Source: a virus. From it: a stretch of DNA of 64,000 nucleotides. The stretch lies in the IMG/VR virus record IMGVR_UViG_3300005265_000001, positions 41,898-105,897 of that record. One strand, given 5' to 3'. The notes below the pieces were generated by a model. It did not search any database and was not told the origin of the DNA. It was given only the letters and a program-made list of their open reading frames with translations. Positions within the stretch are counted from its first letter, which is position 1, and every line of letters begins with the position of its first letter. Below are positions 9,746-59,289 of this stretch, piece by piece. Position numbers and translations under genes: made by a program.

Positions 9746-9750
9746 AATAA

Positions 9751-10269: not shown

Positions 10270-10271
10270 AA

Positions 10272-10631
10272 TTGTTAAATATCAGTAAAAAACAATCAAA
10301 ACATTTAAAATATGAGGTAAATACTGTTGATGATAAGTTACTTTCAGATGATAAATCAAGATATTATGGTTTGAAATTTTTAGAATCGGCGGTTGTTACG
10401 GATTCCTTGTGGATTGAAAGTTTTGAAAGAAAAGAAATTCCTGAAAGTGATAATGATTTATACATAGAATTTCAAAAAGGTGACAGATTAGATTTATTAT
10501 CATTTCATTATTATGGAACTTCAAGGTTATGGTGGGCTATTGCAATAGCCAATAATATCCAAAACCCATTTAAAGAAATAAAACCGGGAACAATGATTCG
10601 GATTCCCGATATAAATTTAATTAGAAGGTAG
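10272..10631 (+). CDS. LysM-like baseplate wedge protein (gp53 / P2 gpX-like)
   Basis: GDRLDLLSFHYYGTSRLWWAIAIANNI.NPF..IKPG..IRIP. Confidence 0.85.
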   Translation: MLNISKKQSKHLKYEVNTVDDKLLSDDKSRYYGLKFLESAVVTDSLWIESFERKEIPESDNDLYIEFQKGDRLDLLSFHYYGTSRLWWAIAIANNIQNPFKEIKPGTMIRIPDINLIRR

Positions 10632-10636
10632 GTTCC

Positions 10637-12031
10637 ATGTTCAATTATAATCAATACATACCCCAACCCGCTTTTGGGTTTGTTCATTTTGAATTGTTTA
10701 ATAGAAATAAAAAAGTTGTATTGAAAACTCCAAGTATAAATGAAAAATTAAATTCAAGAATAATTGAAATGCAATACACACGGAACATGGCGAATAGAGC
10801 CAATCAATTGACATTTAAATTGTTTGATGAAACATGGGGGGAACTTGAAGACGATATTATTGAAATTTATAGAGATGATGATTCAAGATTGTTGTTAAAA
10901 TATGGGTGGATAGGAAATGATGGCGAAATTTATGAATCTCAGTATTATTCTTTATCTTTGACACATATTCGACCTGAATTTAGAATTGATGGACTTATTT
11001 TAACTTTTGATGCTATTTCAAATGTAGATGATTTTTTTCAAAACAAATTCAAATATAATACATTTGCTTTAAAGGAATTTGCGTGTAGGCATTTACCATA
11101 TTTGAATCAATATCTTAAAATGGATCATAAAACATCTAAAGTAAATGCTGATTTAATAGAAAGGTCTCCCGTTTCCCCTTCGGATGTAGTAAAAGCCTTT
11201 GCAATATTTAAAAAATTTGATTATGATATTGATGAAACTCATATTGTTTTGCACCATTGGTCCCATACAAAAACGATTAGACAACCTTGGGTTCCACCAA
11301 TGAATGATGTTACAATTGGGAGCTATATAAAAGATGAAATTCTACCAATTTCATGTGGTAGAAACAATAAACCTGGATATTATTTTTGGGTTGAAGACGG
11401 GGAAGAAAGGCCAAAAATAATTTTTAAACAAATGAAAGAAAGTGATGATGTTTTGAAATATATATATTTAAGAGAAGAAAATAGTGAAGTGATAAGTTTT
11501 AGTCCCGTTTTATTAGGAAAATTTGCAAGTTTAAAAACACCTTCTGAATCAATGCAATATGTAGATTTGCAAACAGGGCACAAAAAAATCATACTGAAAC
11601 ATGCGGAGAGGGTTAATTGTGGTGGAAATAATCATTTGCCAATTGATAAAATAGGCGGGAATTATGTTACTTTGAAAAAAAGAGATAATGACACAATACC
11701 AGAAAAAGAAAAAATTGCGAAAAACACACATAATATTAAAGATCAACATCACACCCTTGAAATGAGTGAAATTAAAACGGCGCATAGTATGATTTATGAT
11801 ATGAATACAACTTTTGAGGCGGAATTGCGTATAATTTGCAACCCTAAATTAAATCCATACGCAACAATTTATGTAGAAGTTCCAAAACCAAACGGGGAAC
11901 TTCATTATGCAAGTGGGCAATATAGAATAACCGAAATCACAGATAGATATGTTAATGGTGTTTTGGAATCAACTATAAAATTGATAAGAAATTCACTTTT
12001 AACACAATCACAACAAGTGGTGAAAGACTAA
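10637..12031 (+). CDS. Baseplate hub protein (gp27 / P2 gpD-like)
   Basis: Position between LysM and spike; C-terminal NPKL..SGQYRITEITD..STIKL. Confidence 0.7.
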   Translation: MFNYNQYIPQPAFGFVHFELFNRNKKVVLKTPSINEKLNSRIIEMQYTRNMANRANQLTFKLFDETWGELEDDIIEIYRDDDSRLLLKYGWIGNDGEIYESQYYSLSLTHIRPEFRIDGLILTFDAISNVDDFFQNKFKYNTFALKEFACRHLPYLNQYLKMDHKTSKVNADLIERSPVSPSDVVKAFAIFKKFDYDIDETHIVLHHWSHTKTIRQPWVPPMNDVTIGSYIKDEILPISCGRNNKPGYYFWVEDGEERPKIIFKQMKESDDVLKYIYLREENSEVISFSPVLLGKFASLKTPSESMQYVDLQTGHKKIILKHAERVNCGGNNHLPIDKIGGNYVTLKKRDNDTIPEKEKIAKNTHNIKDQHHTLEMSEIKTAHSMIYDMNTTFEAELRIICNPKLNPYATIYVEVPKPNGELHYASGQYRITEITDRYVNGVLESTIKLIRNSLLTQSQQVVKD

Positions 12032-12999
12032 TGATAACAGGAATTTTTTTAGCAACAGTTGAATATAATCTTGACCCATTACAAAGGGGGAGAATAAAGG
12101 TAAGAGTCAATGGAATTGATGATATGGATAAACCAGTTGATGATTTGAATTGGGCGGAAATTATTAATATTGGGGGGGCTGGAAATGATTTTGGAAATAT
12201 AAATATCCCTGAAGTGGGTTCAACTGTTTACGTTTCTTTTTTAAATGGTGATCCTAATAAACCTTTGGTTTTGGGGGGATATTATCAACATTCGGCAAAT
12301 GATAAAAATTATGTTTTTAATGAGGAAAGTGAAAAATTAAGAGAAAATATTTATGAAGATGTTGGAGAAATGTGGGCTGTTACTACAACTCCAATTATAC
12401 CAACACCGCATAATATTAATGAATATCCAATAGAAAGTCAAACATTATTGAATAATCAACCAACAAAAAGATTATCAAAAACTTTAAAAGGGCACACAAT
12501 TTTAATTGATGATATGGATGGAGAAGAGTCTTTTGAAATTATAGACAGGGCGGGGCAACTTTTAAAATTCAGGGCGAATGTTATAAAGAATCACAATGCA
12601 CTTAACAAAAACAGACGTGGTATAAAAAGAGCGGATGCAAAAAACACCTTTTCAAATGATATTTTTGAAGATAGTGGAACCGAAATTGATTTACTTGACA
12701 TAAAAGGGCAAGGACTTAAAATCAAATCCAAAAAACACTTGGAAGAAATAAACATAAAATCTATTTCAAAAGATAGCACACAGGAAATTCAATTAAATTC
12801 AGGAAAAGATGATTTTAACATAACAATAAAAAACAAAAATTCTCAATCAACTATTAGAATAAATAATGGAGAAGTTTCTATATTTTCAAATGGCAACATA
12901 AATATCATATCGGACAAAAACATTGTAATGAGTGGCAAACAAATAATAACAAATGAAACAAATGAAATTGATGATGAATTTTTTACGGGAAAAGACTAA
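12031..12999 (+). CDS. Central spike protein (gp5/VgrG/gpV OB fold plus beta-helix)
   Basis: DPLQRGRIKVRV..WA..IPEVGSTVYVSFLNGDPNKPLVLG; KTLKGHTILIDD. Confidence 0.9.
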   Translation: MITGIFLATVEYNLDPLQRGRIKVRVNGIDDMDKPVDDLNWAEIINIGGAGNDFGNINIPEVGSTVYVSFLNGDPNKPLVLGGYYQHSANDKNYVFNEESEKLRENIYEDVGEMWAVTTTPIIPTPHNINEYPIESQTLLNNQPTKRLSKTLKGHTILIDDMDGEESFEIIDRAGQLLKFRANVIKNHNALNKNRRGIKRADAKNTFSNDIFEDSGTEIDLLDIKGQGLKIKSKKHLEEINIKSISKDSTQEIQLNSGKDDFNITIKNKNSQSTIRINNGEVSIFSNGNINIISDKNIVMSGKQIITNETNEIDDEFFTGKD

Positions 13000-14951
13000 T
13001 GGGTGATATACAGAATCTTATTGATAAATCTTTAACTGAAAGTGAAAATTTTGTGTCTTCAATTAACTGTATTCGGTTAAATGATACAAATGTCAATTTA
13101 CCACGTGGAAATTCCATTAGATTTTATCATAGCAAAATTACAGGTATATTTAAAAATGTCGAAACATATAAGGGGCGGGGGGATATTTTCAATAAAAGGG
13201 AACAAACTGAATTTATTGATGATAATAACAAATATTATAATGCAATAGTAACAGAATATTCCCTTTTTAATAAATTCCATGTGAAAGGATCGGAAATAAT
13301 TGCAGTTTCAACAACATTTCAAGAAATTGAGCTTGATGGTTGCAATGCAAAAATTATTGGAAATCCCTATTATGGTGATATTATTGAGGATTATCATGGA
13401 GCCATTAAAGATACTTATATAAATGTTACAAATGGGAAATTGATAATCAAACACATGATAATAAAAAATTTGGATGTTTTACTCAAAGATTGTGAAAATG
13501 CTGTAATTGAATTTATAAATTGTGATTTTGATGCTATTAAAGAATTTGGGAATGTTACAAATTGTGAGATATATTTTGCACAATGTAGGGGAGTATCATT
13601 TTTGAGAAAAGGGCTTGTAATGACCAAGTCAAAAATTACTATAAATAATCAAGAAATAAAAAGTAGAAATGATGTAATTTTTAGTGGCACAGAATCGGAA
13701 ATAATTATAAACAATTCTCCCAATATATACTCTTCGGTTGGAATTGTAAATGGAAATGGAACTGATATTAGTATTTATAATTCAAAAATAGATGGAAATC
13801 CTCAATGCGCTTTTGAATTGAGTAATAAAAGCAATTTGAAAATTTCAAAAATTTTTGATGATATAAATTCAGAAGTCTTTCTTAAAAGTAATGATTCGGC
13901 AATTGATATAAATAATATTCAATCAATATATTCTGAATCAAGTTGTTTTAGTGTTAAAAATTCTTTTGTGAAATTGAATGGGTTTAATATTATTGAAAGT
14001 CAAGATGAAATAATCAATTCAAATCAATCAACCATTAATTATTTCGACGGGAACACAATAAAAGGAATTTCTTTGACTTCTAATAATGATAATTCAATTT
14101 TGTTTAAATCTATAAATACTATTGAAATAGAAACATCGTCATATACCAATTCAAATGTTAAATTTATTGATATAACAGATTTAGATAGTATTATAAATTA
14201 TAGTAATTCCAATATATTGAAACTTAATGTTGATACAATAGATAAAGACATAACAACAAACAATTCTAATTTATCTATATATAATAATAGAATACTTAAA
14301 AATGTCACAGCAAGCAATAAAAGCATTTTTAAGATTTTAACATTTAATGAAATGGGCAATTTTACTTCAAATGATAGTGTGGCAATTATAAAAAAAGGAA
14401 CTAAAACAGGAAATATAAATTTGAATGGATCAAAGATAAAAATAGCAAATCTTAATGAAATTGGGTCAATCAACGCAAATAATGATAGTTATTTGGAGGT
14501 AAAATATATTTCAAATGTTGATGATATAAATGTTTCAGATGGTAGATTCTTAAATCTTTATGATTTGGCTATAACAAGTGGATTGAACTTTGATGGATTT
14601 ACTTGTATTTCTAAAGATATAAAAATGGGGTCTTTAAATATTGCCGCAAAAAAAGCGGATTTGTTAAAAATTTATTGTAAAGGAACAATGGAAATTTCGG
14701 GGGCATCTAATGTTGATATGGCCGATATTAGAACAAACGGTTTAAATATAGCAAATTCGTCTAATGTAATGGGAAAAACAGTAAATTCGGGAAGTTTAAA
14801 TATTAGTGGTGGAAGTGTAAATATAAACATTTCGGGTCTTAATGGATGCGGAACTATTTCTGTAAGTAGTTCTCATGATGTTAGCATTTCGCCTGTTACT
14901 GCCACAAACATCACAATATCCAATTCTAAATGTAATTTGATAAATTATTAA
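12999..14951 (+). CDS. Long beta-helix-like virion protein
   Basis: N/S/I-rich short strands throughout; translationally coupled to the spike gene. Confidence 0.5.
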   Translation: MGDIQNLIDKSLTESENFVSSINCIRLNDTNVNLPRGNSIRFYHSKITGIFKNVETYKGRGDIFNKREQTEFIDDNNKYYNAIVTEYSLFNKFHVKGSEIIAVSTTFQEIELDGCNAKIIGNPYYGDIIEDYHGAIKDTYINVTNGKLIIKHMIIKNLDVLLKDCENAVIEFINCDFDAIKEFGNVTNCEIYFAQCRGVSFLRKGLVMTKSKITINNQEIKSRNDVIFSGTESEIIINNSPNIYSSVGIVNGNGTDISIYNSKIDGNPQCAFELSNKSNLKISKIFDDINSEVFLKSNDSAIDINNIQSIYSESSCFSVKNSFVKLNGFNIIESQDEIINSNQSTINYFDGNTIKGISLTSNNDNSILFKSINTIEIETSSYTNSNVKFIDITDLDSIINYSNSNILKLNVDTIDKDITTNNSNLSIYNNRILKNVTASNKSIFKILTFNEMGNFTSNDSVAIIKKGTKTGNINLNGSKIKIANLNEIGSINANNDSYLEVKYISNVDDINVSDGRFLNLYDLAITSGLNFDGFTCISKDIKMGSLNIAAKKADLLKIYCKGTMEISGASNVDMADIRTNGLNIANSSNVMGKTVNSGSLNISGGSVNINISGLNGCGTISVSSSHDVSISPVTATNITISNSKCNLINY

Positions 14952-44177: not shown

Positions 44178-44498
44178 ATGCCGGATGCCGTAAATACTCA
44201 AAATTTTGAAAAATATAGTGAATCAATTCTCGATTATTCCTTTGATTGGAGTGATTGGTTGGATTATGATACTCATGAAATAATTCAAACTTATGATTTT
44301 GAAATAGTTGGACCTGATACAAATTTAACAGAAGTTAATAGGGATATTTCAAGTGATAGAAAAATGATTACAATTTGGGTTACAGGTGGAACACCAAAGG
44401 CACGGTATAAAATAATTGGTAAAATTACAACAAATTCAACCCCAATAAATAGACATGATATAAGGTTTATTCGTCTTTTAATACTACCAGAAGATTAG
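44178..44498 (+). CDS. Fibre-to-virion adaptor protein (Ig-like)
   Basis: K...ILDYSFDWSDWL...IWVTGGT....YKI...ITT pattern of phage fibre-tail adaptors. Confidence 0.7.
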   Translation: MPDAVNTQNFEKYSESILDYSFDWSDWLDYDTHEIIQTYDFEIVGPDTNLTEVNRDISSDRKMITIWVTGGTPKARYKIIGKITTNSTPINRHDIRFIRLLILPED

Positions 44499-45065: not shown

Positions 45066-45860
45066 GTGAAATACACTTTTTATGAAACAGTTGGAGATGT
45101 TTATGGAAATGCGGTATCAAATGCAGATGTGTATGTGTATTTATCGGGAACTACAACAGCGGCAAAGGTTTATATAGATGGATCAGCGGTGACAACAGCA
45201 CCGCAAACTTCAACAGATAGTTTTGGATTTTATACTTTTCAAGTTGATGATGATGATTATAGTTATACCCAAACTTTTGATATCAAGGTTGCTAAGAGTG
45301 GGTATGTAGATAAATGGATAAAAAATATCAATATAATTGAAGGTGGTAAATTTGTTAGATTGGATGGAAATTCTTTACCAGAGGCCGATAACACCTATGA
45401 TGTGGGGGATTCAACACATCGTTTCAAGAATATTTATGCGGTTAATTTCAACGGAACGGCGTCAAGTGCTACTTATGCTGATATTGCGGAAAAATATACA
45501 ATTGAAGATATTGAAAATGTGAAGGTCGGAGATGTAATTATTATTTCAGATAAAGATGAATTTGATGGAAAAGTTTCAGATGAAATTGCTTCAAATAAAG
45601 TAATTGGTGTTGTTAGTGAAAATCCGGCATTTAAAATGAACTCGAATTTGGAAAATGGAAAATATATTGCTTTGCGTGGTAGGGTAAAATGTCGAATCTT
45701 TGGTGTTGTATCAAAGGGTGAAGAACTTGTATCTTATGTTAATGGTTGCGCTATTGGTATAAATAATGTTAAAAATTTCCTGGAATCCTATCAACCAGTG
45801 GGAAAATCATTGGAAAATAAGCGGACTTCCGAAGTTGGATTGATTGAAATAATTGTGTAA
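45066..45860 (+). CDS. Short fibre-like protein with C-terminal autocleaving-chaperone-like domain
   Basis: YADIAEKY..GDV..VIGVVS.NPA..MN..IALRGRV.C..G.V.KGE.LV; N-terminus shared with 54887. Confidence 0.65.
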   Translation: MKYTFYETVGDVYGNAVSNADVYVYLSGTTTAAKVYIDGSAVTTAPQTSTDSFGFYTFQVDDDDYSYTQTFDIKVAKSGYVDKWIKNINIIEGGKFVRLDGNSLPEADNTYDVGDSTHRFKNIYAVNFNGTASSATYADIAEKYTIEDIENVKVGDVIIISDKDEFDGKVSDEIASNKVIGVVSENPAFKMNSNLENGKYIALRGRVKCRIFGVVSKGEELVSYVNGCAIGINNVKNFLESYQPVGKSLENKRTSEVGLIEIIV

Positions 45861-45883: not shown

Positions 45884-46357
45884 ATGAATAAATCAATTGA
45901 TGAATTAATTCTTTTAATAACTACAAGTCGATATTTATCACGAAAACATTATGAGCGTTTTTTGGAAATGTTTGAAGATATCAAAAATGATAATGTTCAA
46001 ACAAAATACAAAGACTTGATTATAGATTGTTATGAAAAAGACAGGGAAATGGTATCACTTTTAGTCAATATGGAGAGATATTTTGCTCAAAATATTGAGT
46101 ATTATGAAAATGATGGAAAGATTGGAATAAAAGATTTGATTGGATATAGAAATGTTATAGATAGAAAGGTGGGGGATGAGCTTTTTGAAAAATATAAAGA
46201 CACAGAGGAAATAAAAGAAATCGTAAAGGGGTTTAAGAATCCTTTTTATACTATGAAAGCCATTTTTCTTGTATTTTTGGCTTTTCAAAATTCCGGTTCA
46301 CCATATTCCAAAGGTGACAAATTTGAACTTACAAAATTATTTAGTGAAGATGAATGA
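45884..46357 (+). CDS. Hypothetical helical protein, first gene of the rSAM cluster
   Basis: ATGA overlap with rSAM-1. Confidence 0.6.
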   Translation: MNKSIDELILLITTSRYLSRKHYERFLEMFEDIKNDNVQTKYKDLIIDCYEKDREMVSLLVNMERYFAQNIEYYENDGKIGIKDLIGYRNVIDRKVGDELFEKYKDTEEIKEIVKGFKNPFYTMKAIFLVFLAFQNSGSPYSKGDKFELTKLFSEDE

Positions 46358-47556
46358 AACGAGATTTTTTTCAGAAAAAAGTATTAAATCGTATTCACTC
46401 GATAGAGCTTGTAATAAGCGAAAAGTGTCAAAATGCTTGCACTTATTGTTACAGAAATCGGTTGCATAAAAAATCAAACATAATAACAGTAAATCCCAAA
46501 ACAATTGAAATTTTTATTAAAAATCTATATGAATTATTTCCCGAATTAACAAAAATCGAAAGATTTGAACTATTTGGGGGAGAACCTTTTTTAGATTACA
46601 GCCATATATTTTCAATCTTTGAAATACTTAATAAATTTGATAATATTAAGAAAGTTGTAGTGCCCACCAATGGTAGATTACTACTATCTTTGAATAAAAT
46701 TGATAGAGAAAAATTATTAAATTCTTGGAATTTTGAGGTTGGAATATCAATGTCTATTGATGGAATAAACGGGCAAAGAAATTTATCAAATTTTGGTAGA
46801 ATGTTGGGATATGAGGAAATTGAAGAGAATGATGAATTTTTTAAGAATTTGAGAGATTTACAAAAAGAAATTGGTTTTGGCGTTCATCCAATGCTATATT
46901 TCGGAAATAATCAAAATTGGGTAGAGCAAGTTAAAAAATGGGTGGAACATGGATTTATACCATATTTATTAGAAATTAGACATCCTCTAAGCAATGATGA
47001 AATACTTGATTCAGTGAAAAATCTTGTATTTGTGGCTAATTACATTTTTAAAAATGTTGATAAAAAACATCATAAAAGATTCAATACAATTTTCCCCATA
47101 AAAGTTCCAAGGGGGCTTGGTTGTTCAGCGTTGACAACTATCACTATTATGCCCAATGGGGATATTCCCTTTTGCCATAGAGTTATAGAACCGCCTTATG
47201 TAATGGGGAATGTTTTGACAAAACAAATTGATTACTCTAAATTTGTAAATTATAAAACATTCGATCACCGAAACAATCCTGAATGTGTGGGTTGCCCTAT
47301 TAGAAAAATATGTTCAGGGCAATGTCTTGGGGCGGCGTATGAATATTATAGAGGCTATCCTTGGTTGAATATTCCTTCAATTTGTCAATATAATTTATTG
47401 AAATATTATGTTTTTTCAGAATTTTTTGAAATATGGAACAATTTTTTAATTGAAAATAGAGTAAATAAAAAAGATATATTGAAAGCATTGAAACGCAATA
47501 ATACAATAAAAGAAAAAATGGGAAAAATGATGAAGGAAATAAAATGTGGGATTTAA
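46354..47556 (+). CDS. Radical SAM/SPASM-domain peptide maturase 1
   Basis: CQNACTYC, FGGEP, SIDG; SPASM GCSAL..PNGDIPFCH..CVGC..KICSGQC..C. Confidence 0.9.
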   Translation: MKRDFFQKKVLNRIHSIELVISEKCQNACTYCYRNRLHKKSNIITVNPKTIEIFIKNLYELFPELTKIERFELFGGEPFLDYSHIFSIFEILNKFDNIKKVVVPTNGRLLLSLNKIDREKLLNSWNFEVGISMSIDGINGQRNLSNFGRMLGYEEIEENDEFFKNLRDLQKEIGFGVHPMLYFGNNQNWVEQVKKWVEHGFIPYLLEIRHPLSNDEILDSVKNLVFVANYIFKNVDKKHHKRFNTIFPIKVPRGLGCSALTTITIMPNGDIPFCHRVIEPPYVMGNVLTKQIDYSKFVNYKTFDHRNNPECVGCPIRKICSGQCLGAAYEYYRGYPWLNIPSICQYNLLKYYVFSEFFEIWNNFLIENRVNKKDILKALKRNNTIKEKMGKMMKEIKCGI

Positions 47557-49070
47557 ACATATATGGATTTAGCACAATAGGACCCGCAACACCCAAAGAA
47601 TATAGTATTAATTTGGGCGATTGGGAAATTATTGATATACCTTTTGATGTGGATAAAGAAGAGGCAAAAAGATATATTTCCAATTTTTTGGATAAAATAG
47701 TTGCCATTGAAATGCCCACTTCATTACAATGTAATTTGAGGTGTAAATATTGTTATATTACTAATCCGAAATATAAAAATACGGTGGTAAAATCAAGTCA
47801 AATAGAAAAAATTATCAATAATGTTAAGAATTTGCTTCCAAACTTCAAAGAAAATTCTAAGGAAAAGATATATTTTACACCTTGGGGGGCGGAACCCCTT
47901 ATCAATATTAATACAATTGAGGTAATTTATAACAAAATTAAAGAGTTCAATTATAAAAATGTCACAATGAATTTTTCCACAAATGCTACGATATTAAACG
48001 AAAAAGTAAAAGATATTCTTTATAAATTGATTGATAAGGATATAATTAAAGATATTCAAGTTTCTATTGATGGTCCACCCGATATTCAAAACTATTATAG
48101 GCCATTTTTAAATGATTCTCCAAGTTTTGATTCTGTTGTTGAATTTGTAAAATGGATAAAAGAAATAGAAAGAGAGAAAAAGAAAAAAATTTTGCATTTT
48201 TGTTCTACCATTTATTTAAGAGACGAAAATTTTATTAATGATTGGTATAAGGCAACAGATTTTTTCTCAGATAAAGATAATGAACTATTTTTTACACAGG
48301 TTATGCCGTCACGTATGAGTGGTGAGGATTTAACAAATGATGAAATGGTGGAAATTTTTGTTGAAGCCATGAGACAAAGCACGGATTTACTTACTAAAAA
48401 GGCTAAAAACCAAAATATTGGGTTAGTTGATTTTTATACAAATAAATTGTTTGGTATTCCTTCGGCGTGTAGTAGAACAGCATATCCTTATTGTTCCGCT
48501 TTAAATACTCAAATTGCAATTGATTTGGATGGATCATTATATCCATGTCACGGTCCTATAACAAATCCAATAAACGAAAAACCGTGGGTATGGTTTGGAA
48601 ACATTTTTGAAAAAAAGATATCATATAGAAGACTAAAAAGGGCAATTTTTTCATTATACGGTGGAACAATTTTTAAAGGGAAATGCAATGATTGTATTAT
48701 TTATCAATTAACTCGATCCCCTATTTGTTGGAGTTGTTATTCTCATAATTTGGCAGTTTCAAATGAACCTTTAACAGATAGTATTTATAGATGTTTTGCC
48801 TTTAATAAATCATTTAAATATTGGTTGATTCAAGCACTTGTATCTATTGAAAATTCTTATGTTTTTCCATTATTAACTAAAAAAATGATAGAGTTTTTGG
48901 GTATTGAAAAAATTGAATCTAATGTAAAAAATAAGATATCATATAAAACTTCAAGTAAATATACATACGGTTATGATGGGGTTTTGGTAAATGCCTGTAA
49001 AAAAATGGAAAAAAATATTAGTTTTGGTGGATATGTTTCTGAATGGTGGCGAATGGATGATTTTAATTAA
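47544..49070 (+). CDS. Radical SAM/SPASM-domain peptide maturase 2
   Basis: CNLRCKYC, WGAEP, STNA, SIDGP; SPASM YCSAL..DGSLYPCH..CNDC..CWSC..C. Confidence 0.9.
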   Translation: MWDLNIYGFSTIGPATPKEYSINLGDWEIIDIPFDVDKEEAKRYISNFLDKIVAIEMPTSLQCNLRCKYCYITNPKYKNTVVKSSQIEKIINNVKNLLPNFKENSKEKIYFTPWGAEPLININTIEVIYNKIKEFNYKNVTMNFSTNATILNEKVKDILYKLIDKDIIKDIQVSIDGPPDIQNYYRPFLNDSPSFDSVVEFVKWIKEIEREKKKKILHFCSTIYLRDENFINDWYKATDFFSDKDNELFFTQVMPSRMSGEDLTNDEMVEIFVEAMRQSTDLLTKKAKNQNIGLVDFYTNKLFGIPSACSRTAYPYCSALNTQIAIDLDGSLYPCHGPITNPINEKPWVWFGNIFEKKISYRRLKRAIFSLYGGTIFKGKCNDCIIYQLTRSPICWSCYSHNLAVSNEPLTDSIYRCFAFNKSFKYWLIQALVSIENSYVFPLLTKKMIEFLGIEKIESNVKNKISYKTSSKYTYGYDGVLVNACKKMEKNISFGGYVSEWWRMDDFN

Positions 49071-49095
49071 ATTATTATTTTGAGGTGTTTGTAGA

Positions 49096-49545
49096 ATGGG
49101 TTATACGTGGACGGATGAGACTTTAGATTCCGATGATGATATTAGAACGTTTCATGTTTCTGAATTAAGAACAAATCTTAATAATGAACGTAACAGAAGA
49201 AGTATGACTCAATTTAGTTGGACAGATGATCCATTGGATTCAGATACTAAGATAAAAACCGTTCACATAAATGAATTACGAAATGGTTGTGATACAACAC
49301 CTGTAAATACAGGGTGTTCTGCGGAAAAAGGAAGCTACTATTCCGATAATGATTCAACTGTATATTCAGATAAAGATGCTACGATTCATTCTGATGAAAA
49401 TACTGGAATAAATTCCGGAAGAGATGTTACGGTGTATAACGGGAGAGATGGGAGCTATCATAATGGATTTGATAGTGACCAATGCGGAACAGATTATGGG
49501 GGCGATGATAGTGATAAAAATAGCGGGATTCATAATGTGGGGTAA
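49096..49545 (+). CDS. Putative rSAM substrate peptide 1 (double leader motif + 19 tetrad repeats)
   Basis: GAGGTG SD; WTD..L....I...H..ELR twice; core in 4-residue register. Confidence 0.7.
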   Translation: MGYTWTDETLDSDDDIRTFHVSELRTNLNNERNRRSMTQFSWTDDPLDSDTKIKTVHINELRNGCDTTPVNTGCSAEKGSYYSDNDSTVYSDKDATIHSDENTGINSGRDVTVYNGRDGSYHNGFDSDQCGTDYGGDDSDKNSGIHNVG

Positions 49546-49548
49546 AAA

Positions 49549-49890
49549 ATGAGTTGGACAGATGACCCTCTTACAGCGGAACTTACAAAAGTAAAAACAA
49601 TTCATATAATTGAATTAAGAAATGCTATTGATGATTTAAGTGAGGGTTGTGTTTCTTATAATAGTTCTTATGATTCGGATAAAGACGCCACAGTTGATTC
49701 AAGTAAAAATAATACGGTAGATTCTACACAATATTCTGGGGCCGATTCATCTCAAAATAGTTCGGCGGATTCCACAAAAGATAATTCAGTAGATGGCACA
49801 AACTGGAACACAGATTATTATGCTAATCATGGAACTCACCACAATTCATGGTGTTCTGGAAACTACACAGATAGGTGTATAGGATATTAA
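49549..49890 (+). CDS. Putative rSAM substrate peptide 2 (single leader motif + 20 tetrad repeats)
   Basis: MSWTDDPL..TKVKTIHIIELRNAID then CVSY NSSY DSDK DATV ... CIGY. Confidence 0.7.
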   Translation: MSWTDDPLTAELTKVKTIHIIELRNAIDDLSEGCVSYNSSYDSDKDATVDSSKNNTVDSTQYSGADSSQNSSADSTKDNSVDGTNWNTDYYANHGTHHNSWCSGNYTDRCIGY

Positions 49891-49918
49891 ATTTAATGAA
49901 TATGATTGTTTGTAACAT

Positions 49919-49941
49919 GGGGATGTCAATCCCCTTTTTTT
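49919..49941 (+). terminator. Intrinsic terminator closing the rSAM/peptide operon
   Basis: GGGGAT-GTCA-ATCCCC-TTTTTTT. Confidence 0.8.
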
Positions 49942-49986: not shown

Positions 49987-52900
49987 ATGCCCGATATTTA
50001 TCCAAGTTCTCTAAATTCAAATACAAGTTTTTCTTTTAATTTGGGCGGAGATTTTTTAAAATATAGAAGCCTTACAATAGAGAGTAAGGATGTTGAAATT
50101 GATATTGATCCAATTATTTCAAACGTTGAATTAACATATTCTATTGAAGTATCTGATTTTTATTTGGGTTTAAGTTCTGAAATATCATTTAATTTTGTGG
50201 TTGGATTTTCTAATATAAATCCCACTTTAACAAGTTATTCTAATCTGTTTTCAGATTTGACATTAAAAGATTTTCAACTTAATTCGTATTCCAATTTATC
50301 ATATTTACTTGATGGAGATTTTTTAAAATATCGAAGTCTTGTTTTACGGGCATATAATGTAATAATCGAAGATAACACTGAAATAGAATCAAATGTAAGT
50401 GTTGATTTTGATGTAAATATAGAAAATGAAACAGATATTTTTTCTACTAATACAAACATAAATTTTCAAAATATTGATATCATTTTTCAAGCCGAAATAT
50501 TAAATTCAATAAGTCAAATAATCACTGAAATTGAGTTAATAAAATCAGTTGATTTACTTTCTACGAATACACTTTTTAGATTTGATGGAACTGCTACTGG
50601 AAATGTGGTAATTTCGGACTTATTACAGACTCAGGCTGATTTACTATATTCTAAAATAGTAACTGGAAATGCAATTGCAAGTGAAACACTTGATTCCAAT
50701 TCCAAATTATTTTATTCTGGACTTATTAACAATAGTGTTGTAATAAATGCCACAAGTTTAGGCACAAATGTAATTTTAGATTTTGTAGAATATACTGAAA
50801 AAGTTGCAAAAACCTTAAATAGTCAAACTCATTTATCTGTTTCAAGTCCTGTTATTGATAAAGTATTAAGAAATTTTATTATCCAAACCAATTCAAGCAT
50901 AGTATTTTCTTTTGTAAAAGGCATTTCAATTTCAAATAATATTTTTGAATCTGATTCTCAATTATCGTTTAATTATGCTATTGGTAAGGTTGTCTCAGAT
51001 TTTCAATTAAATGTTGATTCTGATTTGTCATATTCCGGCGTGGCTACCGATATAGTAATTGATTCCGAAAAACTTGATGCGGTTTCGGAACTTAATTATG
51101 GTGGTGTTGTAACTGGAAATGTCATAAGCAACTTTTTGTTAGAGGTATCAAGTGATTTAATTTATAGTAATTTTGTAATTGATACAATAGTAAATACCAT
51201 TCCTTTAATTTCAAATGTCAATTTGTTGTCTTCTTTTGTGATTGGAACGTCAATTACAGCAAATTCGATGGGATTAGATACTGAAATTGACTTTAATTAT
51301 GTGGTTGGAACGGTTGTAAGAAATTTTAATTTAGATTCGGTATCTGAAATATCATTTTCAAGTGTTTTTCGTGATACTATAATAGAAGTTCAGGAATTAA
51401 ATTCCAATACTTCTTTACAATTTGATTCAGTAATTATTGGAAATGTTGTTTCTAATTTTCTATTTGAAACGTTAAGTGAAATAGATTTTGGTCTATTTAT
51501 TGACAATGTTGTAAGCAATTTTAATTTAGATTCAACTTCTTATTTAGATTTTTCTAATCTTTTGATTGATACTGCCATAACACCTAATATATTAAATTCA
51601 TTGGTTTCAAATGTCTTTGATTATGCGGTTGGAAAGGTTTTAAAGGATTGGTTATTACAAACTGTTTCAGATATTAACTTTCATGTTGTGGTTGGTAGTG
51701 TCGTTTCAAATTTTACGTTTGGCACTAATACTTTCTTAACATTTTTGAAAACTGTAATTGGAAATGTTGTTACAGTAGATAGTTTAAATGTTGATCTTGA
51801 TATTGATTTTAATATTGTAAAGGGGCATGTTTTAAGAAGTGGTGTTTTATCTACCAATTCCAAACTGAATTTTGAGAAGATTGTAGATGTTAGCATACCT
51901 CAAAACTCCATTGAAACAAATTGTAATATTGGTTTTGATGGTGTTGTAACTGGTATAGCAATTCAAAATAATGTTTTTGATGGGTTTGTAAATATTTTTT
52001 ATGATTCTATTAGGGTTGGAACGGTTGTAAGAAATTTTGATTTAATATCAAATTCAAATATTTTGTTTTCAAATTTAATAGTAGATGTAATAATATCAAA
52101 AAATAATGAGATATTAAGCAATTCTGATTTATTGTATCAATCGATAGTTACTGGAAATGTGTTAATTGTAAACGAAATTGAAAGCAATTCTACTATTAAT
52201 TTTCAAAATATTGCAATTGGAAAAGTAATACATTCAGATGTTACTAATGTTTATACTGATATAAATTCAACTTTTGTAATTGGAAATGTTGTTAAAGATT
52301 TTGATTTATTGAGTGATACTACAATTTCTTTTGAAAAAATAATCATTGATACTGTAATTGACAATAATATTCAAACAACACAAACCGAAATTAACTTTGG
52401 AAATATCGAAATATCTGTTTTCGATATTGTTTTAAATTCGGCGGCTTCTTTAATATCTATTCCTGAAATTGAAGTAGATGGAAACATAATAGAATCGGCA
52501 ACAAGTCAATCTTTTCAAAACATACAAATTGAGTTTGAAATAAGTCAAATTGATTCTTTTACAAATATATTGTTCGATTTTTATATTGATAGAATTATAA
52601 AAAATAATTTCTTAGACACTGTTTCGGAAATTTCAAATGTTTTTTATGTAGATAAGATATTTACAGATAATAAATTAGAGACAAACGGTGAAATAACTTT
52701 TGGATTCTATGTTGATGTTGTATTAGATAACAATGTAATTACCTCAAATTCACAATTAAATAACACCTATGAATTACAATTTATTCCAAAGGCACTTGAA
52801 ACAGAAGGATCAATTTCATTTAATTTTATCATAGATATTTATTTGTATTTAGATAATTTGGAAAGTTTTGTTAATTTATATATTGACATTATTCAAAAAG

Positions 52901-53361
52901 ACTTTTTATTGTGGATTTATTCATTTCTTTCATATACAGGGCGGCTTGATTTTACTGAATTATGTAATATTTTCAATGTTTACAAAGAGGACAGGAAATT
53001 TTCAGTTGAAAGAGAAGATAGGACCTATCACATTTATGCTGAAACATATTCACAAGAAATTGAAATTCAAAACATTTTTAGAATCCAAAAAGAAAACAGA
53101 ACCTACCATATCTATGCTGAAACATATTCACAAGAAATTGAAATTCAAAACATTTTTAGAATTGAAAGAGAAGATAGGACCTATCACATTTATGCCGATA
53201 CAATTTCCCAAGAAATTGAATTGATTGATATTTTCAAAATACCAAAAGAAAATAGGGTATTTAAGATTTTTTCGGAGAATAGAGTATTTGAAATATCCAA
53301 AATTGATAGAATTTTTAATGTATTCAAACGGACTAAAGTTTATAAATTATTATGCAAATGA
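49987..53361 (+). CDS. Long ~21-aa-repeat scaffold ('fibre tape measure') protein with distinct C-terminal repeats
   Basis: Roughly 45 repeats like VIGNVVSNFLFETLSEIDFGL; C-terminal E(D/N)RxF/Y repeats. Confidence 0.65.
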   Translation: MPDIYPSSLNSNTSFSFNLGGDFLKYRSLTIESKDVEIDIDPIISNVELTYSIEVSDFYLGLSSEISFNFVVGFSNINPTLTSYSNLFSDLTLKDFQLNSYSNLSYLLDGDFLKYRSLVLRAYNVIIEDNTEIESNVSVDFDVNIENETDIFSTNTNINFQNIDIIFQAEILNSISQIITEIELIKSVDLLSTNTLFRFDGTATGNVVISDLLQTQADLLYSKIVTGNAIASETLDSNSKLFYSGLINNSVVINATSLGTNVILDFVEYTEKVAKTLNSQTHLSVSSPVIDKVLRNFIIQTNSSIVFSFVKGISISNNIFESDSQLSFNYAIGKVVSDFQLNVDSDLSYSGVATDIVIDSEKLDAVSELNYGGVVTGNVISNFLLEVSSDLIYSNFVIDTIVNTIPLISNVNLLSSFVIGTSITANSMGLDTEIDFNYVVGTVVRNFNLDSVSEISFSSVFRDTIIEVQELNSNTSLQFDSVIIGNVVSNFLFETLSEIDFGLFIDNVVSNFNLDSTSYLDFSNLLIDTAITPNILNSLVSNVFDYAVGKVLKDWLLQTVSDINFHVVVGSVVSNFTFGTNTFLTFLKTVIGNVVTVDSLNVDLDIDFNIVKGHVLRSGVLSTNSKLNFEKIVDVSIPQNSIETNCNIGFDGVVTGIAIQNNVFDGFVNIFYDSIRVGTVVRNFDLISNSNILFSNLIVDVIISKNNEILSNSDLLYQSIVTGNVLIVNEIESNSTINFQNIAIGKVIHSDVTNVYTDINSTFVIGNVVKDFDLLSDTTISFEKIIIDTVIDNNIQTTQTEINFGNIEISVFDIVLNSAASLISIPEIEVDGNIIESATSQSFQNIQIEFEISQIDSFTNILFDFYIDRIIKNNFLDTVSEISNVFYVDKIFTDNKLETNGEITFGFYVDVVLDNNVITSNSQLNNTYELQFIPKALETEGSISFNFIIDIYLYLDNLESFVNLYIDIIQKDFLLWIYSFLSYTGRLDFTELCNIFNVYKEDRKFSVEREDRTYHIYAETYSQEIEIQNIFRIQKENRTYHIYAETYSQEIEIQNIFRIEREDRTYHIYADTISQEIELIDIFKIPKENRVFKIFSENRVFEISKIDRIFNVFKRTKVYKLLCK
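53017..53250 (+). repeat. 78-bp (26-aa) tandem repeat x3
   Basis: DRTYHIYAETYSQEIEIQNIFRI.(K/R)E units start at 53017, 53095 and 53173. Confidence 0.85.
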
Positions 53362-54173
53362 ACAGAAAAACACTAAAATTTTTGATTATTTTAATACTAT
53401 TTTTGGTTGGATGCGCTCACAAAAAACCACATGATAGACCTTCCAACTATGCCCATAGGTATATAGATGGTGTGAATTTATTTGTTTTTGAATCCGAAAT
53501 AAATGATGTTGATTTATTGATTGCAAAACATATTAGAGCGGTTCGATTACCAATTAGATATGAATTTCAAACTAAAACGTGTCAATATATTGATAAATTT
53601 TTAAGTCATGGTGTTACAGTTTTATTAACTTTTGATTTAACTGAAAATGATAGAAAATTCCAAAAAGCAATTGATTTTTATTTAAAACGATACGGAAACA
53701 GAGTTTTTTATGAGATTTTTAATGAGCCTTGGGCATATAATGGAAATCCTGGTTACAAAAAATTTGATTCAACTGAACGAATTTTTGTGGAACAAACAAG
53801 ATGGATTGATTATATTCATTCAAAATGTCCTAATTGTAAGACATTAAACGGTGGAATTGCTGATTTTTGTAATGATATTGAAATGGATTTATTGTTAAAA
53901 TATGTGGAAAGAGGCCACCAAGATATTTTTTCAATCCATATTTACGGATATTGTGAAAATGCTTTGATATCCAAAATAAACATGATGAAAAAAACAGGCA
54001 AAAAAATATGGATAACTGAAATCGGAACAACAGGAAACAAAGAAAATTACATAAATACATATTTTCCCAACATTGTAAAAATAGTTCAACCCGAAAAATT
54101 GATTTGGTTTGATTATAATTCTGGAAATTTTGGTATAGAACATACTGATATTTTCAATAAACTTTTTGAATAG
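53352..54173 (+). CDS. Lipoprotein glycoside hydrolase, clan GH-A TIM barrel
   Basis: LFLVG-C lipobox; YEIFNEP (acid/base), SIHIYG, IWITEIG (nucleophile). Confidence 0.75.
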   Translation: MQMNRKTLKFLIILILFLVGCAHKKPHDRPSNYAHRYIDGVNLFVFESEINDVDLLIAKHIRAVRLPIRYEFQTKTCQYIDKFLSHGVTVLLTFDLTENDRKFQKAIDFYLKRYGNRVFYEIFNEPWAYNGNPGYKKFDSTERIFVEQTRWIDYIHSKCPNCKTLNGGIADFCNDIEMDLLLKYVERGHQDIFSIHIYGYCENALISKINMMKKTGKKIWITEIGTTGNKENYINTYFPNIVKIVQPEKLIWFDYNSGNFGIEHTDIFNKLFE

Positions 54174-54184
54174 GGTGTTACATA

Positions 54185-54874
54185 ATGAATTTAACAATTA
54201 ACAAATATATATCTAATTCAAGTGAATGGAATAATCTTGATGGAACAGTCAATCTTAAATCTCATAATGTCATGCAATATATAAATCCACCTAATATTTC
54301 AGGTTACTTATTCAATGGTGTTGATAGTTATATGGAATTTGATAATTCAGTTTTAATAGAGGGGAAGAAAAACTGGACAATTTATTTTTGGTTGATTCCC
54401 AAAATAAGTGACTGCTATATAATGGGCAAAGATGGATCATGGAAAATTGAATTGATGGGTGAATTATTACAATTTAGTGATTTAAAAAATTCTTTTTCCA
54501 TAAAGACATTAAATAAACTTATTGTAAATAAATTGTATAATATAGCAATTGTTTTTGATTTGAACACGTCTTTGATAAAAATTTATGTTAATGGTGTTCT
54601 GGATATTTCCGATAAAATTGAAAAACAAATATCCGAAGCCACAACTAAATTCAAAATAGGCAACAGTGAAAAAGATTATTATAAAGGAATTTTGTATAAT
54701 GTTATGATTTGGGATGATATAATTTCAGATTATCAATGCAAACATAATTATTACTATCATCCTTTATATTTATACAATACCGGCGTTATTCGGGGAAATA
54801 ATGTTAGTATTTTTACAAGTAATTTGATTGATTTTGTAAATAGGGGTATTGCTTTAGGTGGTATTCATATTTAA
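54185..54874 (+). CDS. LamG/concanavalin A-like domain protein
   Basis: FNGVDSY..WTIYFW..IAIVFD..IYVNGVL..IG..YYKG.L.NVMIWD. Confidence 0.75.
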   Translation: MNLTINKYISNSSEWNNLDGTVNLKSHNVMQYINPPNISGYLFNGVDSYMEFDNSVLIEGKKNWTIYFWLIPKISDCYIMGKDGSWKIELMGELLQFSDLKNSFSIKTLNKLIVNKLYNIAIVFDLNTSLIKIYVNGVLDISDKIEKQISEATTKFKIGNSEKDYYKGILYNVMIWDDIISDYQCKHNYYYHPLYLYNTGVIRGNNVSIFTSNLIDFVNRGIALGGIHI

Positions 54875-58111: not shown

Positions 58112-58228
58112 ATGGCAACCTATGAAATTGAAAACGAAATTGTTTCATTTCAGGCAGTATGTAGTTATTTTGAAACAGATTGTTTTTGTAATGAATATGA
58201 AGATGATGAGGAAGGGGGAAACGATTGA
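58112..58228 (+). CDS. Small acidic Cys-containing peptide (38 aa, not in the ORF track)
   Basis: MATYEIENEIVSFQAVCSYFETDCFCNEYEDDEEGGND*; GGGGG SD; stop overlaps the next start. Confidence 0.45.
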   Translation: MATYEIENEIVSFQAVCSYFETDCFCNEYEDDEEGGND

Positions 58229-59289
58229 GTTTATTTGATGATTTGAAGAAACTTAAAGAAGAAGGGAAGATTTTCTTAAATTCTCATCCAACAAAACCAT
58301 TGTGGATTGCTAATTATACCCCACAAGTTCAATTTAAGGGGGAATGGTCAGAATTACTAATGATGTGTAGGGGTCTTGTGGTTGATGAAAATGGAAATAT
58401 TATTGCAAGGCCATTTAAAAAGTTTTTTAATTTACATGAACATTTAAATAATCCCGACAAACTTCCACCAATTCCCAAAACAAAAAAATTTGATGTGTAT
58501 GAAAAATTAGATGGGTCTTTGATTATTCTCTTTTGGTATGATGGGGAATGGGAAGTGGCGTCAAGAGGATCATTTATTTCAGAACACGCCAAAAAAGCAA
58601 GGGAAATGATTGAAAATAAATATGGATTTTATATAAATAGATTTGATAAATCTAAAACTCATTTATTTGAATTGATAGCACCTGAATTTAGAATTGTTGT
58701 TAATTATGGGGATATGGAGGAACTTTTTTTACTTGCTATTATTGAGACGAAAAGTGGAAAAGAAGATGGTATTTTTGGTGTTAATTTTCCGAATAAACCA
58801 AAAATTTATGATGGGGTTGCGGATATTAAAGAATTATTTGAAAAATATCCATATACCGGAAATCAAGAAGGATTTGTAATTAGATTTAGAAATGGATTTA
58901 GACTGAAATTAAAATATGAAGAATATGTTAAATTGCATAGAATGGTGACTGGACTCAATGAAAATGCTATTTACGAAATGTTAAAAAGTGGGGAAGGTGT
59001 TGTAGAATTAAAAAAACAATTACCAGAAGAGTTTTATGGTTGGATTGATGAAAAGGCCGGAAAACTTTTAGATATGTTTGAGAAAATTAAAAATTCCCAT
59101 ATTGATGTTTTCAAAAATGAAATAGATGGCAGGTTTACAAATAGAAAAGAAATGGCACTTAAAATTTTATCATATAAACCACAGTTGAATCCAAGTATTT
59201 TGTTTGCTTTGGCAGATGATAAAAATATTGATGAAATAATTTGGAAAATGATTAAACCAAAAAATAATGAAAAAGTGTGGGGGGTATAA
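58225..59289 (+). CDS. RNA ligase, T4 Rnl1 (RnlA) family
   Basis: CRGLV..ARPFKKFFN, YEKLDGSL, ASRGSF, FEL, EGFVI, RLKLK. Confidence 0.9.
   Translation: MSLFDDLKKLKEEGKIFLNSHPTKPLWIANYTPQVQFKGEWSELLMMCRGLVVDENGNIIARPFKKFFNLHEHLNNPDKLPPIPKTKKFDVYEKLDGSLIILFWYDGEWEVASRGSFISEHAKKAREMIENKYGFYINRFDKSKTHLFELIAPEFRIVVNYGDMEELFLLAIIETKSGKEDGIFGVNFPNKPKIYDGVADIKELFEKYPYTGNQEGFVIRFRNGFRLKLKYEEYVKLHRMVTGLNENAIYEMLKSGEGVVELKKQLPEEFYGWIDEKAGKLLDMFEKIKNSHIDVFKNEIDGRFTNRKEMALKILSYKPQLNPSILFALADDKNIDEIIWKMIKPKNNEKVWGV

Follow-up and report, generated by a model that had tools for sequence, protein, structure and literature searches.

A cysteine-poor radical SAM gene kit with tetrad-repeat proteins among the tail-fibre genes of an uncultured phage

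Results

Two radical SAM/SPASM genes are coupled to genes for two tetrad-repeat proteins

An uncultured phage encodes, among its tail-fibre genes, two radical SAM (rSAM) enzymes of the SPASM type and two small proteins whose C-terminal parts repeat a four-residue pattern. In related phages the first position of this pattern is a cysteine, whereas here it is mostly Asp, Asn, Tyr or His, so that the enzymes probably modify a part of the virus particle by chemistry other than the usual sulfur bridges, although no modification has been observed and the inference rests on gene neighbourhood. No paper found in the literature searches describes such a system. The locus lies in a window of 64,000 nucleotides (positions 41,898 to 105,897 of the IMG/VR record IMGVR_UViG_3300005265_000001) and comprises the following features, in window coordinates:

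45066-45860, + strand: tail-fibre protein (264 aa) with a C-terminal intramolecular-chaperone-like region; genomic context.
45884-46357, + strand: orphan protein (157 aa), a possible helper, translationally coupled to rSAM-1 by a 4-base overlap.
46354-47556, + strand: rSAM-1, radical SAM/SPASM enzyme (400 aa), the signature enzyme of the Cys-poor tetrad systems.
47544-49070, + strand: rSAM-2, radical SAM/SPASM enzyme (508 aa) with a ~55-aa N-terminal extension and a long C-terminal extension.
49096-49545, + strand: substrate protein 1 (149 aa), with two N-terminal modules (about 49102-49191 and 49213-49299) and a 76-aa tetrad core (49315-49542).
49549-49890, + strand: substrate protein 2 (113 aa), with one N-terminal module (49549-49638) and an 80-aa tetrad core (49648-49887) ending in CIGY.
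49919-49941, + strand: intrinsic-terminator-like hairpin (49919-49934; stem of 6 pairs, 4 of them G-C, loop of 4) followed by seven T, closing the operon.
49987-53361, + strand: protein of 1124 aa built of ~21-aa repeats (fibre-like), without a family hit; genomic context.

The original prediction of an operon of two rSAM/SPASM genes, two genes with products in strict four-residue register and a terminator was borne out in every element, including the coordinates; starts and stops of the five genes overlap or abut. Both enzymes match Pfam Radical_SAM (PF04055) above the gathering score of 29.5 bits and carry the CX3CX2C cluster motif, rSAM-1 with 37.8 bits and CQNACTYC at residue 25 (C25/C29/C32), and rSAM-2 with 45.6 bits and CNLRCKYC at residue 63 (C63/C67/C70). 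Both also possess the seven-Cys set of the SPASM subfamily (CX9-15GX4C, CX2CX5CX3C and a final C). That of rSAM-1 is canonical (CX16C with GX4C at 257-274, CX2CX5CX3C at 311-324, and C344) and passes TIGR04085 with 44.1 bits against a cut-off of 27. In rSAM-2 all seven cysteines (C317-C335, C381/C384/C395/C398 and C417) and those of the CX3CX2C motif are invariant in the family alignment, but the spacing is CX2CX10CX2C and the Pfam SPASM score is 19.7 bits against 21.5. rSAM-2 belongs to a family of 27 other clusters at 36-44% identity, and the locus L003/L163 (L numbers denote the phage or metagenome loci fetched for comparison) carries a 39%-identical copy followed by two tetrad proteins.

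The 157-aa protein has no detectable relative. It has no hit in Pfam, NCBIfam or PHROG, finds only itself among 5.8 billion proteins, gives no usable hit in the Atlas, and is unrelated to the accessory (helper) family of the sister loci (hhalign probability 0.1).

The four-residue register is maintained at the protein level

Translation of both cores reproduces the tetrads, with 18 of 19 first positions in protein 1 and 20 of 20 in protein 2 being C/D/N/Y/H/W. In 100,000 shuffles of each core none reached the observed phase purity, and the phase/residue information has z = 7.5-9.1 at period 4 and 7.0-7.9 at period 8, with about 0 at periods 3, 5 and 7. The cores lack Pro, Leu and Met. Tandem Repeats Finder detects no DNA repeat, 24-nt units are only 40-43% identical, and Ser at position 2 uses all six codons, so the period is kept at the protein level. 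Two refinements are warranted. The true unit is an octad, roughly [Y/H/N/D]-S-x-[K/R/E/Q]-[D/N]-x-[T/S]-[V/I/Y], and the products, which the original prediction had called peptides, are small proteins with a folded N-terminal module, which makes that term misleading.

The N-terminal module recurs beside rSAM genes in other loci

The N-terminal module of ~33 aa (consensus SWTDDPL..T.IKAVHI.ELR.AID) is a widespread, unnamed domain that usually occurs as three tandem copies. Such tandem triples are predicted to fold as a pseudo-threefold helical bundle (AF2 pLDDT 82, pTM 0.77, three extended-plus-helix repeats). In the window the module is split 2 + 1 between the two proteins (module HMM hits at 3.7e-8 and 1.1e-12 in protein 1 and 2.6e-15 in protein 2). 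The closest relative of protein 2, P0034, ends in CVGY.

A search for module proteins beside rSAM genes, with conservation of the register as the criterion, had been named in advance as a check. The module is rare overall, with 1,166 hits among 1.84 billion representatives, yet it lies beside the rSAM gene in at least ten other independent loci: L004, L006, L009/L010, L012, L022/30/41, L077, L117, L014, L061 and L103. The register is significant, in one unbroken phase, in 15 of 20 family cores. However, the module also occurs in many bacterial proteins with no obvious rSAM link (RHS, DUF5010 and InlB-repeat proteins) and is therefore not a dedicated recognition tag. Most of the loci have cysteine ladders (CXXX, CTS or CT repeats), often inside real tail-fibre proteins, and these share the module, the period-4 x-small-small-x register and the genomic slot with the window, but with Cys at position 1.

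Five loci, L014, L061, L077, L103 and L163, share the Cys-poor [D/N/Y/H]-small-small-x tetrads of the window. L014, L061, L077 and L163 have a two-module protein followed by a one-module protein and an rSAM pair, of which only one truncated rSAM is represented for L163, whereas L103 has a single two-module protein with an rSAM pair. Only six Cys-poor loci, including the window, were seen, and the genomic contexts of the other 27 rSAM-2 clusters were not examined. Cysteine is not required in these systems, because L014 protein b and the 468-aa protein of L163 contain none although the rSAM genes are kept. Furthermore, the phage record of the window holds no Cys-ladder protein that could act in trans. 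In the rSAM tree, rSAM-1 belongs to a clade of 5 (SH-like 98) found only in the Cys-poor loci, apart from TIGR04115-type Cys-ladder maturases, and substrate type clusters on the tree (3 changes against 11.5 in shuffles, 0 of 500 as low).

Genomic context suggests a possible link to the tail-fibre apparatus

The gene upstream of the kit encodes a tail-fibre protein (phrog_19602, 9.6e-16; Peptidase_G2 IMC at 5.5e-4, below cut-off), and homologous fibre genes flank the kit in L117 and L082 (BLASTP). All but one of the Cys-poor loci abut tail-fibre or virion genes. In relatives the periodic region is fused to fibre-type domains: the second substrate of L163 carries Pfam Gly_rich_2 (2.6e-15), and in L048 the Cys ladder ends a genuine tail-fibre protein; in L004 it follows a GDSL esterase. 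No protease, peptidase, transporter or exporter was found in the window. The two proteins themselves match no fibre family in Pfam, NCBIfam or PHROG, so that their assignment to the fibre apparatus leans on flanking fibre genes, a Gp77-like adaptor and the fused relatives, evidence that does not settle the matter either way. By contrast, sister loci do carry genes typical of released RiPPs, namely an M28/M42-type peptidase between the substrate genes and the rSAMs in L077, and a YcaO, a GT1 glycosyltransferase and a third rSAM in L103.

Discussion

We favour, with moderate confidence, the interpretation that this is a late-gene kit that builds and chemically matures two small fibre-associated proteins of the phage, a Cys-poor sister of the phage Cys-ladder fibre-modification kit whose chemistry is unknown. 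What the analysis demonstrates is the co-transcription of two complete SPASM-type rSAM enzymes with two proteins made of one or two modules and a 76-80-residue ladder of [D/N/Y/H/C]-[S/N/A/G/T]-[S/T/G/D]-x tetrads, the recurrence of this architecture beside tail-fibre or virion genes in divergent phage contigs, and the sharing of module and register with Cys-ladder systems; the assembly, the chemistry and the fate of the products are our inferences. In this view, the three modules (2 + 1) assemble into the helical bundle predicted for the tandem triples, thereby pairing the two chains and presenting them to the enzymes or the virion, much as the N-terminal domain of CrpA helps CrpC engage its protein substrate. 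Support for this assembly is only weak: the ipSAE is 0.53 against a best control of 0.00, the mark being reached by 51 of 78 solved complexes and 2 of 108 mismatched pairs, but at 0.60 or under by only 5 of those 78 and by all 4 mismatches that passed (of 180); the runs agree in at least 93% of contacts and the partner's pLDDT is at least 65. The enzymes would then work along the ladder tetrad by tetrad, the most likely step being H-abstraction at the beta-carbon of the position-1 residue, the site used at Asp/Asn by PapB, QhpD, NxxcB, DynA and triceptide synthases, after which a small ring would close within or between tetrads. With only 2-3 Cys per core, and none in some homologues, most links would be C-C, C-O or C-N bonds and not thioethers. 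The module would be retained and the modified rod or tip would become part of the tail-fibre apparatus.

The interpretation in the original prediction is thus supported in part. Three of its four points, namely an rSAM/substrate operon, a CXXX-like system in which Cys is replaced, and a virion appendage instead of a secreted metabolite, gain comparative support, whereas iterative chemistry beyond thioethers is pure inference. It had also noted the absence of a protease or transporter, which holds for the window, but the peptidase of L077 and the YcaO of L103 mean that leader removal cannot be excluded.

Alternative explanations appear less likely. The tetrad or octad ladder could be an unmodified structural or metal-binding repeat, either a trimeric beta-helix like the octad repeats of T4 gp5C or a stack of Asp/Asn/His/Tyr ligands along a fibre axis, with the enzymes acting only on the few conserved cysteines, at the junction and in the C-terminal C-x-G-Y/Q, or on another target. 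8-residue repeats build triple beta-helices in phage spikes, a point not tested here, the cores have an 8-residue super-period with V/I/Y at every eighth position, and all position-1 residues (C, D, N, H, Y) are good metal ligands. In addition, several members end in C[VILF]G[YQ], and a junction Cys right after the module is conserved in at least 90% of aligned family members; the enzymes may therefore act only at the junction, which also counts against the favoured interpretation. A confident model of an unmodified solenoid had been specified beforehand as a result that would count against modification; AF2 gave no confident fold for the core (pLDDT 35-45), but the core was modelled only as a monomer with a shallow alignment, and the model is too poor to count either way. 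We consider this alternative unlikely, since two family members lack Cys altogether yet keep the rSAM genes, and since Cys ladders and Cys-poor ladders share the register and enzyme context, which points to the ladder itself as the target.

Somewhat less likely still is a released RiPP, in which the module would be a leader cut off by a host or phage peptidase and the modified Asp/Asn/Tyr-rich core a free bioactive peptide, for example, an inhibitor of competing phages or bacteria, or a metal chelator. The leader-plus-core layout with its junction Cys, the small size of the proteins and the gene contents of L077 and L103 are consistent with this possibility; recognition and removal of a leader and release of a core were not assayed. 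However, the window has no peptidase or exporter, the module is a folded domain found in many non-RiPP proteins, the periodic region of relatives is internal or terminal to large fibre-type proteins, and most loci sit inside tail-fibre or virion-gene modules. Finally, phages carry many rSAMs of other function, and weak NCBIfam hits to viperin-like and MoaA models leave room for two rSAM enzymes that are unrelated to the neighbouring proteins, for example, nucleotide-modifying or anti-defence enzymes that merely sit in the late operon. This is very unlikely, given that rSAM-plus-module adjacency recurs in loci whose rSAMs are only 23-28% identical, that substrate type tracks the rSAM clade, and that both enzymes have full SPASM domains and peptide maturases as best hits.

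A more far-reaching possibility, which the data do not rule out but which we regard as doubtful, is that phages use a dedicated pair of SPASM rSAM enzymes to install sulfur-free crosslinks (C-C, C-O or C-N) at every fourth residue along an Asp/Asn/Tyr/His ladder of a virion protein, producing an enzymatically stapled fibre element. This would be a protein modification and a mode of virion construction that has not been described. More generally, rSAM/SPASM enzymes are known mostly as makers of small peptide natural products, and modification of whole proteins has only just been shown, in CrpC/CrpA and the HXS system. A phage kit that applies such enzymes to its own fibre-associated proteins would add a new layer to how viruses build host-recognition structures, and, because the usual cysteine donors are missing, the chemistry would have to differ from thioether formation and would offer rSAM enzymology a new reaction. 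The system is small (five genes, substrates of 113-149 aa), is directly testable and comes with natural Cys-ladder and Cys-poor pairs for comparison.

Comparison with known systems

Triceptide (three-residue cyclophane) synthases such as YhhB, GrrM/OscB and XyeB act on Cys-free substrates with aromatic-x-Asp/Asn motifs, and YSD and HSD occur in protein 1. However, most tetrads start with Asp or Asn, the aromatic-X-X3 motif is present in only a minority of tetrads, and several aromatic tetrads have Gly, which has no beta-carbon, at the third position. The enzymes do not qualify as members of these families (YhhB NF041707, 40-56 bits against 445; GrrM TIGR04261, 42 bits against 310). In the HXS anti-phage system (HxsB/HxsC/HxsD/HxsA; Li et al. 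2026, PMC13128918), two rSAM enzymes and a small protein mature a Cys-independent His-Xaa-Ser repeat within a protein effector, but this is a period-3 repeat of five copies in a bacterial defence system with a periplasmic effector. No HxS period-3 repeat is present in the window proteins, and the scores are 46 and 50 bits against a cut-off of 370 (HxsB TIGR03978/HxsC TIGR03977).

PapB of the PapB/PapA (freyrasin) system is the best-scoring NCBIfam model (NF047865) for both enzymes, and PapB and other ranthipeptide or QhpD-type enzymes abstract H at the Asp beta-carbon in C-x3-D motifs, a period of four (PMC10739248). Nevertheless, the scores of 64.2 and 110.8 bits are far below the cut-off of 340 and the cores have too few Cys donors for a C-x3-D/E substrate, so the enzymes are not assigned to this family. 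In CrpC/CrpA of Methanococcus voltae (Dieter et al. 2026, PMC13692751), a SPASM rSAM crosslinks a protein-sized substrate inside four-residue motifs, with engagement helped by a folded N-terminal domain of the substrate; CrpA is Cys-rich, the links are ranthionine thioethers and the system is archaeal, not viral. Sequence relationship to CrpC/CrpA was not examined.

The CXXX-repeat peptide modification system (NCBIfam TIGR04115 maturase with its CXXX-repeat targets), defined in silico and common beside phage tail-fibre genes, likewise pairs an rSAM/SPASM maturase with a substrate in a strict period-4 x-small-small-x register, and in the fetched phage loci also shares the N-terminal module and the tail-fibre neighbourhood (L004 and L012 score 303 and 234 bits, respectively, on TIGR04115). 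The window enzymes, with 33.3 and 62.3 bits against a cut-off of 350, are not TIGR04115 maturases by this criterion, and both fall outside the Cys-ladder clade in the tree. The proteins are not CXXX-repeat targets either, since only 2 of 19 and 3 of 20 tetrads start with Cys. Instead, position 1 is mostly Asp, Asn, Tyr or His, and two rSAMs are combined with two substrates whose modules are split 2 + 1.

Structure of the operon and its tetrad ladders

The operon lies in the 3′ 64 kb of a 105.9-kb IMG/VR virus record which is rated 58% complete by CheckV; all genes are on one strand and the G+C content is about 30%. The ORFs named in the original prediction are present at the stated coordinates, tightly coupled, and closed by a hairpin followed by a T-run. 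Both enzymes, rSAM-1 and rSAM-2, are radical SAM proteins according to Pfam, and both contain the CX3CX2C motif together with the seven SPASM cysteines. Their best NCBIfam models are peptide maturases, with PapB at 64 and 111 bits, followed by SCIFF, QhpD, DynA and CXXX-repeat, all far below the curated cut-offs. No DNA or protein match was found in GenBank phages. The operon end and the surrounding features referred to below are as follows:

44178-44498, Gp77-like fibre-tail adaptor (1.1e-13)
49919-49941, hairpin plus T-run closing the operon
49987-53361, 1124-aa protein made of dozens of ~21-aa repeats and ending in a series of near-identical ~25-aa repeats, without a family match, directly downstream of the operon
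53352-54173, GH5-like glycosidase
54185-54874, ConA-like lectin domain protein
58225-59289, T4 Rnl1-type RNA ligase (RNA_lig_T4_1, 1.8e-23), downstream of the structural genes

The two products encoded downstream of the enzymes (proteins 1 and 2) parse into four-residue units exactly as had been claimed. In 100,000 shuffles none reached the observed phase purity, and periods 4 and 8 stand out at z = 7-9, whereas periods 3, 5 and 7 do not. There is no tandem repeat at the DNA level and position-2 Ser uses all six codons, indicating that the register is an old constraint at the protein level and not the result of recent slippage. The observation underlying the original prediction is therefore confirmed.

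A widespread, unnamed N-terminal module

The N-terminal "leader" of the two proteins is a domain. A profile of the two proteins searched against 1.84 billion representatives retrieved 1,166 proteins, nearly all through the first ~35 positions. The ~33-aa module (consensus SWTDDPLTAGVTKIKAVHITELRTAIDAL) typically occurs as three tandem copies, at any position in proteins of 100-1,185 aa, and is found in bacterial secreted or surface proteins (P0032-P0178 in the profile search), its partners including RHS, DUF5010 plus B-lectin, InlB B-repeat and GDSL-esterase proteins. Its function is unknown. Pfam, NCBIfam and PHROGs contain no model for the module, for the tetrad cores or for the 157-aa protein encoded in the same operon.

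AlphaFold2 modeling of a 114-aa triple-module protein with 31 aligned relatives yielded a confident model (pLDDT 82, pTM 0.77) of three extended-segment-plus-helix repeats. Foldseek found no PDB match to this predicted bundle, and VIA-align gave only middling Z scores, namely 7.8 for a designed filament, 6.7 and 5.9 for the BARA domain, and about 4 for SLH. This is a common helical arrangement and is not evidence of kinship; neither method provides a convincing solved relative.

In the phage studied here, the three modules are split 2 + 1 between the two proteins, and the phage record holds no other copy. Among the loci retrieved for comparison (L numbers, see below), the HMM finds the same 2 + 1 split in L014 and L061; it is also present in L077 and L163, albeit by eye only, with degenerate first copies that the HMM does not score. 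A complex prediction of the module regions gave weak support only for their association. The ipSAE score was 0.53 against a best control of 0.00; the mark was reached by 51 of 78 solved complexes and 2 of 108 mismatched pairs, but at 0.60 or under it was reached by only 5 of those 78 and by all 4 mismatches that passed (of 180). The runs agreed in at least 93% of contacts and the pLDDT of the partner was at least 65.

Comparative evidence that the radical SAM enzymes and ladder proteins belong together

rSAM-2 has 27 other clusters at 36-44% identity, none of which has a functional name. Genomic context was examined for only one of them (L003 = L163), in which the enzyme is followed at once by two proteins with the same N-terminus and His/Asn/Asp-rich period-4 repeats. 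One of these has 468 aa, no Cys, and a C-terminal Pfam Gly_rich_2 domain. A metagenome scan with the full rSAM-2 alignment was swamped by the generic CNLRCxYCY pattern and returned only distant rSAMs, which nevertheless proved useful as a comparison set, whereas scans with the C-terminal half found only L163 in IMG/VR and nothing in GTDB genomes.

The original prediction had proposed to look for phage rSAM pairs adjacent to proteins with this N-terminus and to ask whether the four-residue register is conserved. We scanned about 160 loci retrieved around distant phage and metagenome rSAM/SPASM genes. Module proteins lie next to the rSAM in L004, L006, L009/L010, L012, L022/L030/L041, L077 and L117, and BLAST and a register scan added L014, L061 and L103. 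Given the rarity of the module in the library, this adjacency is not chance.

The cores fall into two kinds. Cysteine ladders are strict CXXX, (CTS)n or (CT)n repeats, often within proteins of 300-500 aa, including a genuine tail-fibre protein (L048) and a GDSL esterase fusion (L004), and their rSAMs approach the TIGR04115 model (303 and 234 bits). The Cys-ladder end of the L048 tail-fibre protein (3967-5319) matches a PHROG of unknown function (phrog_6085, residues 356-444); a phage family model covering CXXX repeats therefore already exists, although unannotated. In L012 (3606-4721), three modules and a (CTG/CTS)n cysteine ladder are followed in the same protein by a Hint (intein-like) domain that starts at a Cys (Hom_end_hint 1.2e-9), suggesting self-cleavage or thioester-mediated transfer of the modified ladder. 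In L009 (5965-9181) and L010, a module protein ending in a (CT)n run sits next to a SPASM rSAM (PapB model, 209 bits) and a B12-binding radical SAM methyltransferase-like enzyme.

The second kind comprises Cys-poor ladders, found in the present phage, L014, L061, L077, L163 and, with a short core, L103. Pooled over 20 family members, the tetrad is D30/N19/Y15/H7/C4 % at position 1, S/T/N/G/A at position 2, S/T/G at position 3 and V/Y/H/... at position 4, and it holds in one unbroken phase in 15 of the 20 cores.

In a FastTree phylogeny of 97 rSAM sequences, rSAM-1 is placed in a clade (SH-like 98) composed only of enzymes from Cys-poor loci, whereas Cys-ladder maturases form a separate large group. 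Substrate type requires 3 changes on the tree against 11.5 in shuffles, although it should be noted that branches are long and the deep forks are unresolved. The partner rSAM differs between loci. Four Cys-poor sister loci share a helper family of about 160 aa with conserved YNWN and WxPPAF..S..YL motifs and no family name, encoded at the following positions:

L014, 8012-8500 and 11165-11686
L061, 9480-9983
L077, 9440-9904
L103, 10156-10698

The present phage lacks this family within the window. The 157-aa protein shows no relation to it (hhalign probability 0.1), has no homologues, and gave no lead in an atlas search.

Association with tail-fibre and virion genes

Most Cys-poor loci abut tail-fibre or virion genes. 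In the present phage, a 264-aa fibre gene lies upstream of the operon, and the 1124-aa repeat protein, the GH5-like enzyme and the ConA-like lectin lie downstream, with the Gp77-like fibre-tail adaptor nearby; the adaptor, the GH5-like enzyme and the lectin are consistent with a host-recognition module. L014 and L061 contain 1415- and 1655-aa tail fibres and L077 a virion structural protein, whereas in L103 a fibre-like gene was recognized by eye only, with no family hit. As the original prediction had stated, the window has no peptidase or transporter. Against a purely structural fate, however, L077 carries an M28/M42-type peptidase, and the L103 kit (9663-14180) is extended by two helper paralogues, a YcaO (1.1e-43), a GT1 glycosyltransferase and a third radical SAM enzyme, a much richer tailoring set than that of the present phage.

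Possible chemistry of the ladders

The gene kit, its conservation, the intact Fe-S motifs and the selected register are demonstrated by the analyses described here, whereas repeated action of the enzymes along the ladder is an inference. Two family members lack Cys entirely, and a search for a Cys-ladder protein elsewhere in the phage, as a possible donor in trans, found none in the 58%-complete record; thioether formation therefore cannot be the conserved reaction. The favoured position-1 residues (Asp, Asn, Tyr, His, Cys) all carry an activated beta-methylene, and SPASM enzymes such as PapB, QhpD, NxxcB, DynA and triceptide synthases abstract hydrogen at exactly this site in Asp or Asn. CrpC closes its thioether rings within four-residue motifs of a protein substrate (PMC13692751). 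Our best guess is therefore one small sulfur-free ring or another beta-functionalisation per tetrad, but our confidence in this specific step is low. Pairing of aromatic residues with Asp/Asn (i to i+4) was considered as the crosslink rule and was dropped, because it fits protein 1 but not protein 2 or L077.

The alternative that the ladder is a structural repeat, either an octad beta-helix or a metal-ligand ladder, also has to be considered. A stable unmodified solenoid in a structure prediction had been specified in advance as an outcome that would count against modification; the monomer AlphaFold2 model of protein 2 was, however, too poor to use (pLDDT 48) and uninformative for the core, so that this alternative is neither supported nor excluded. 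The interpretation offered in the original prediction, a CXXX-like system with largely replaced cysteines and chemistry beyond thioethers, possibly yielding a virion appendage, is supported only in part: the relationship to Cys-ladder systems and the fibre context gain support from the comparative data, whereas the chemistry rests on inference.

Relation to known systems

Literature searches found no description of rSAM-modified phage fibre proteins or of the CXXX system in phages; one cyanophage paper mentions an rSAM maturase only as an "antibiotic gene". The closest experimental systems are CrpC/CrpA and HXS, both published in 2026. The system to which the present kit is most closely allied is the CXXX-repeat rSAM system, defined in silico, from which it differs in having its own enzyme clade and a substrate alphabet that calls for different chemistry.
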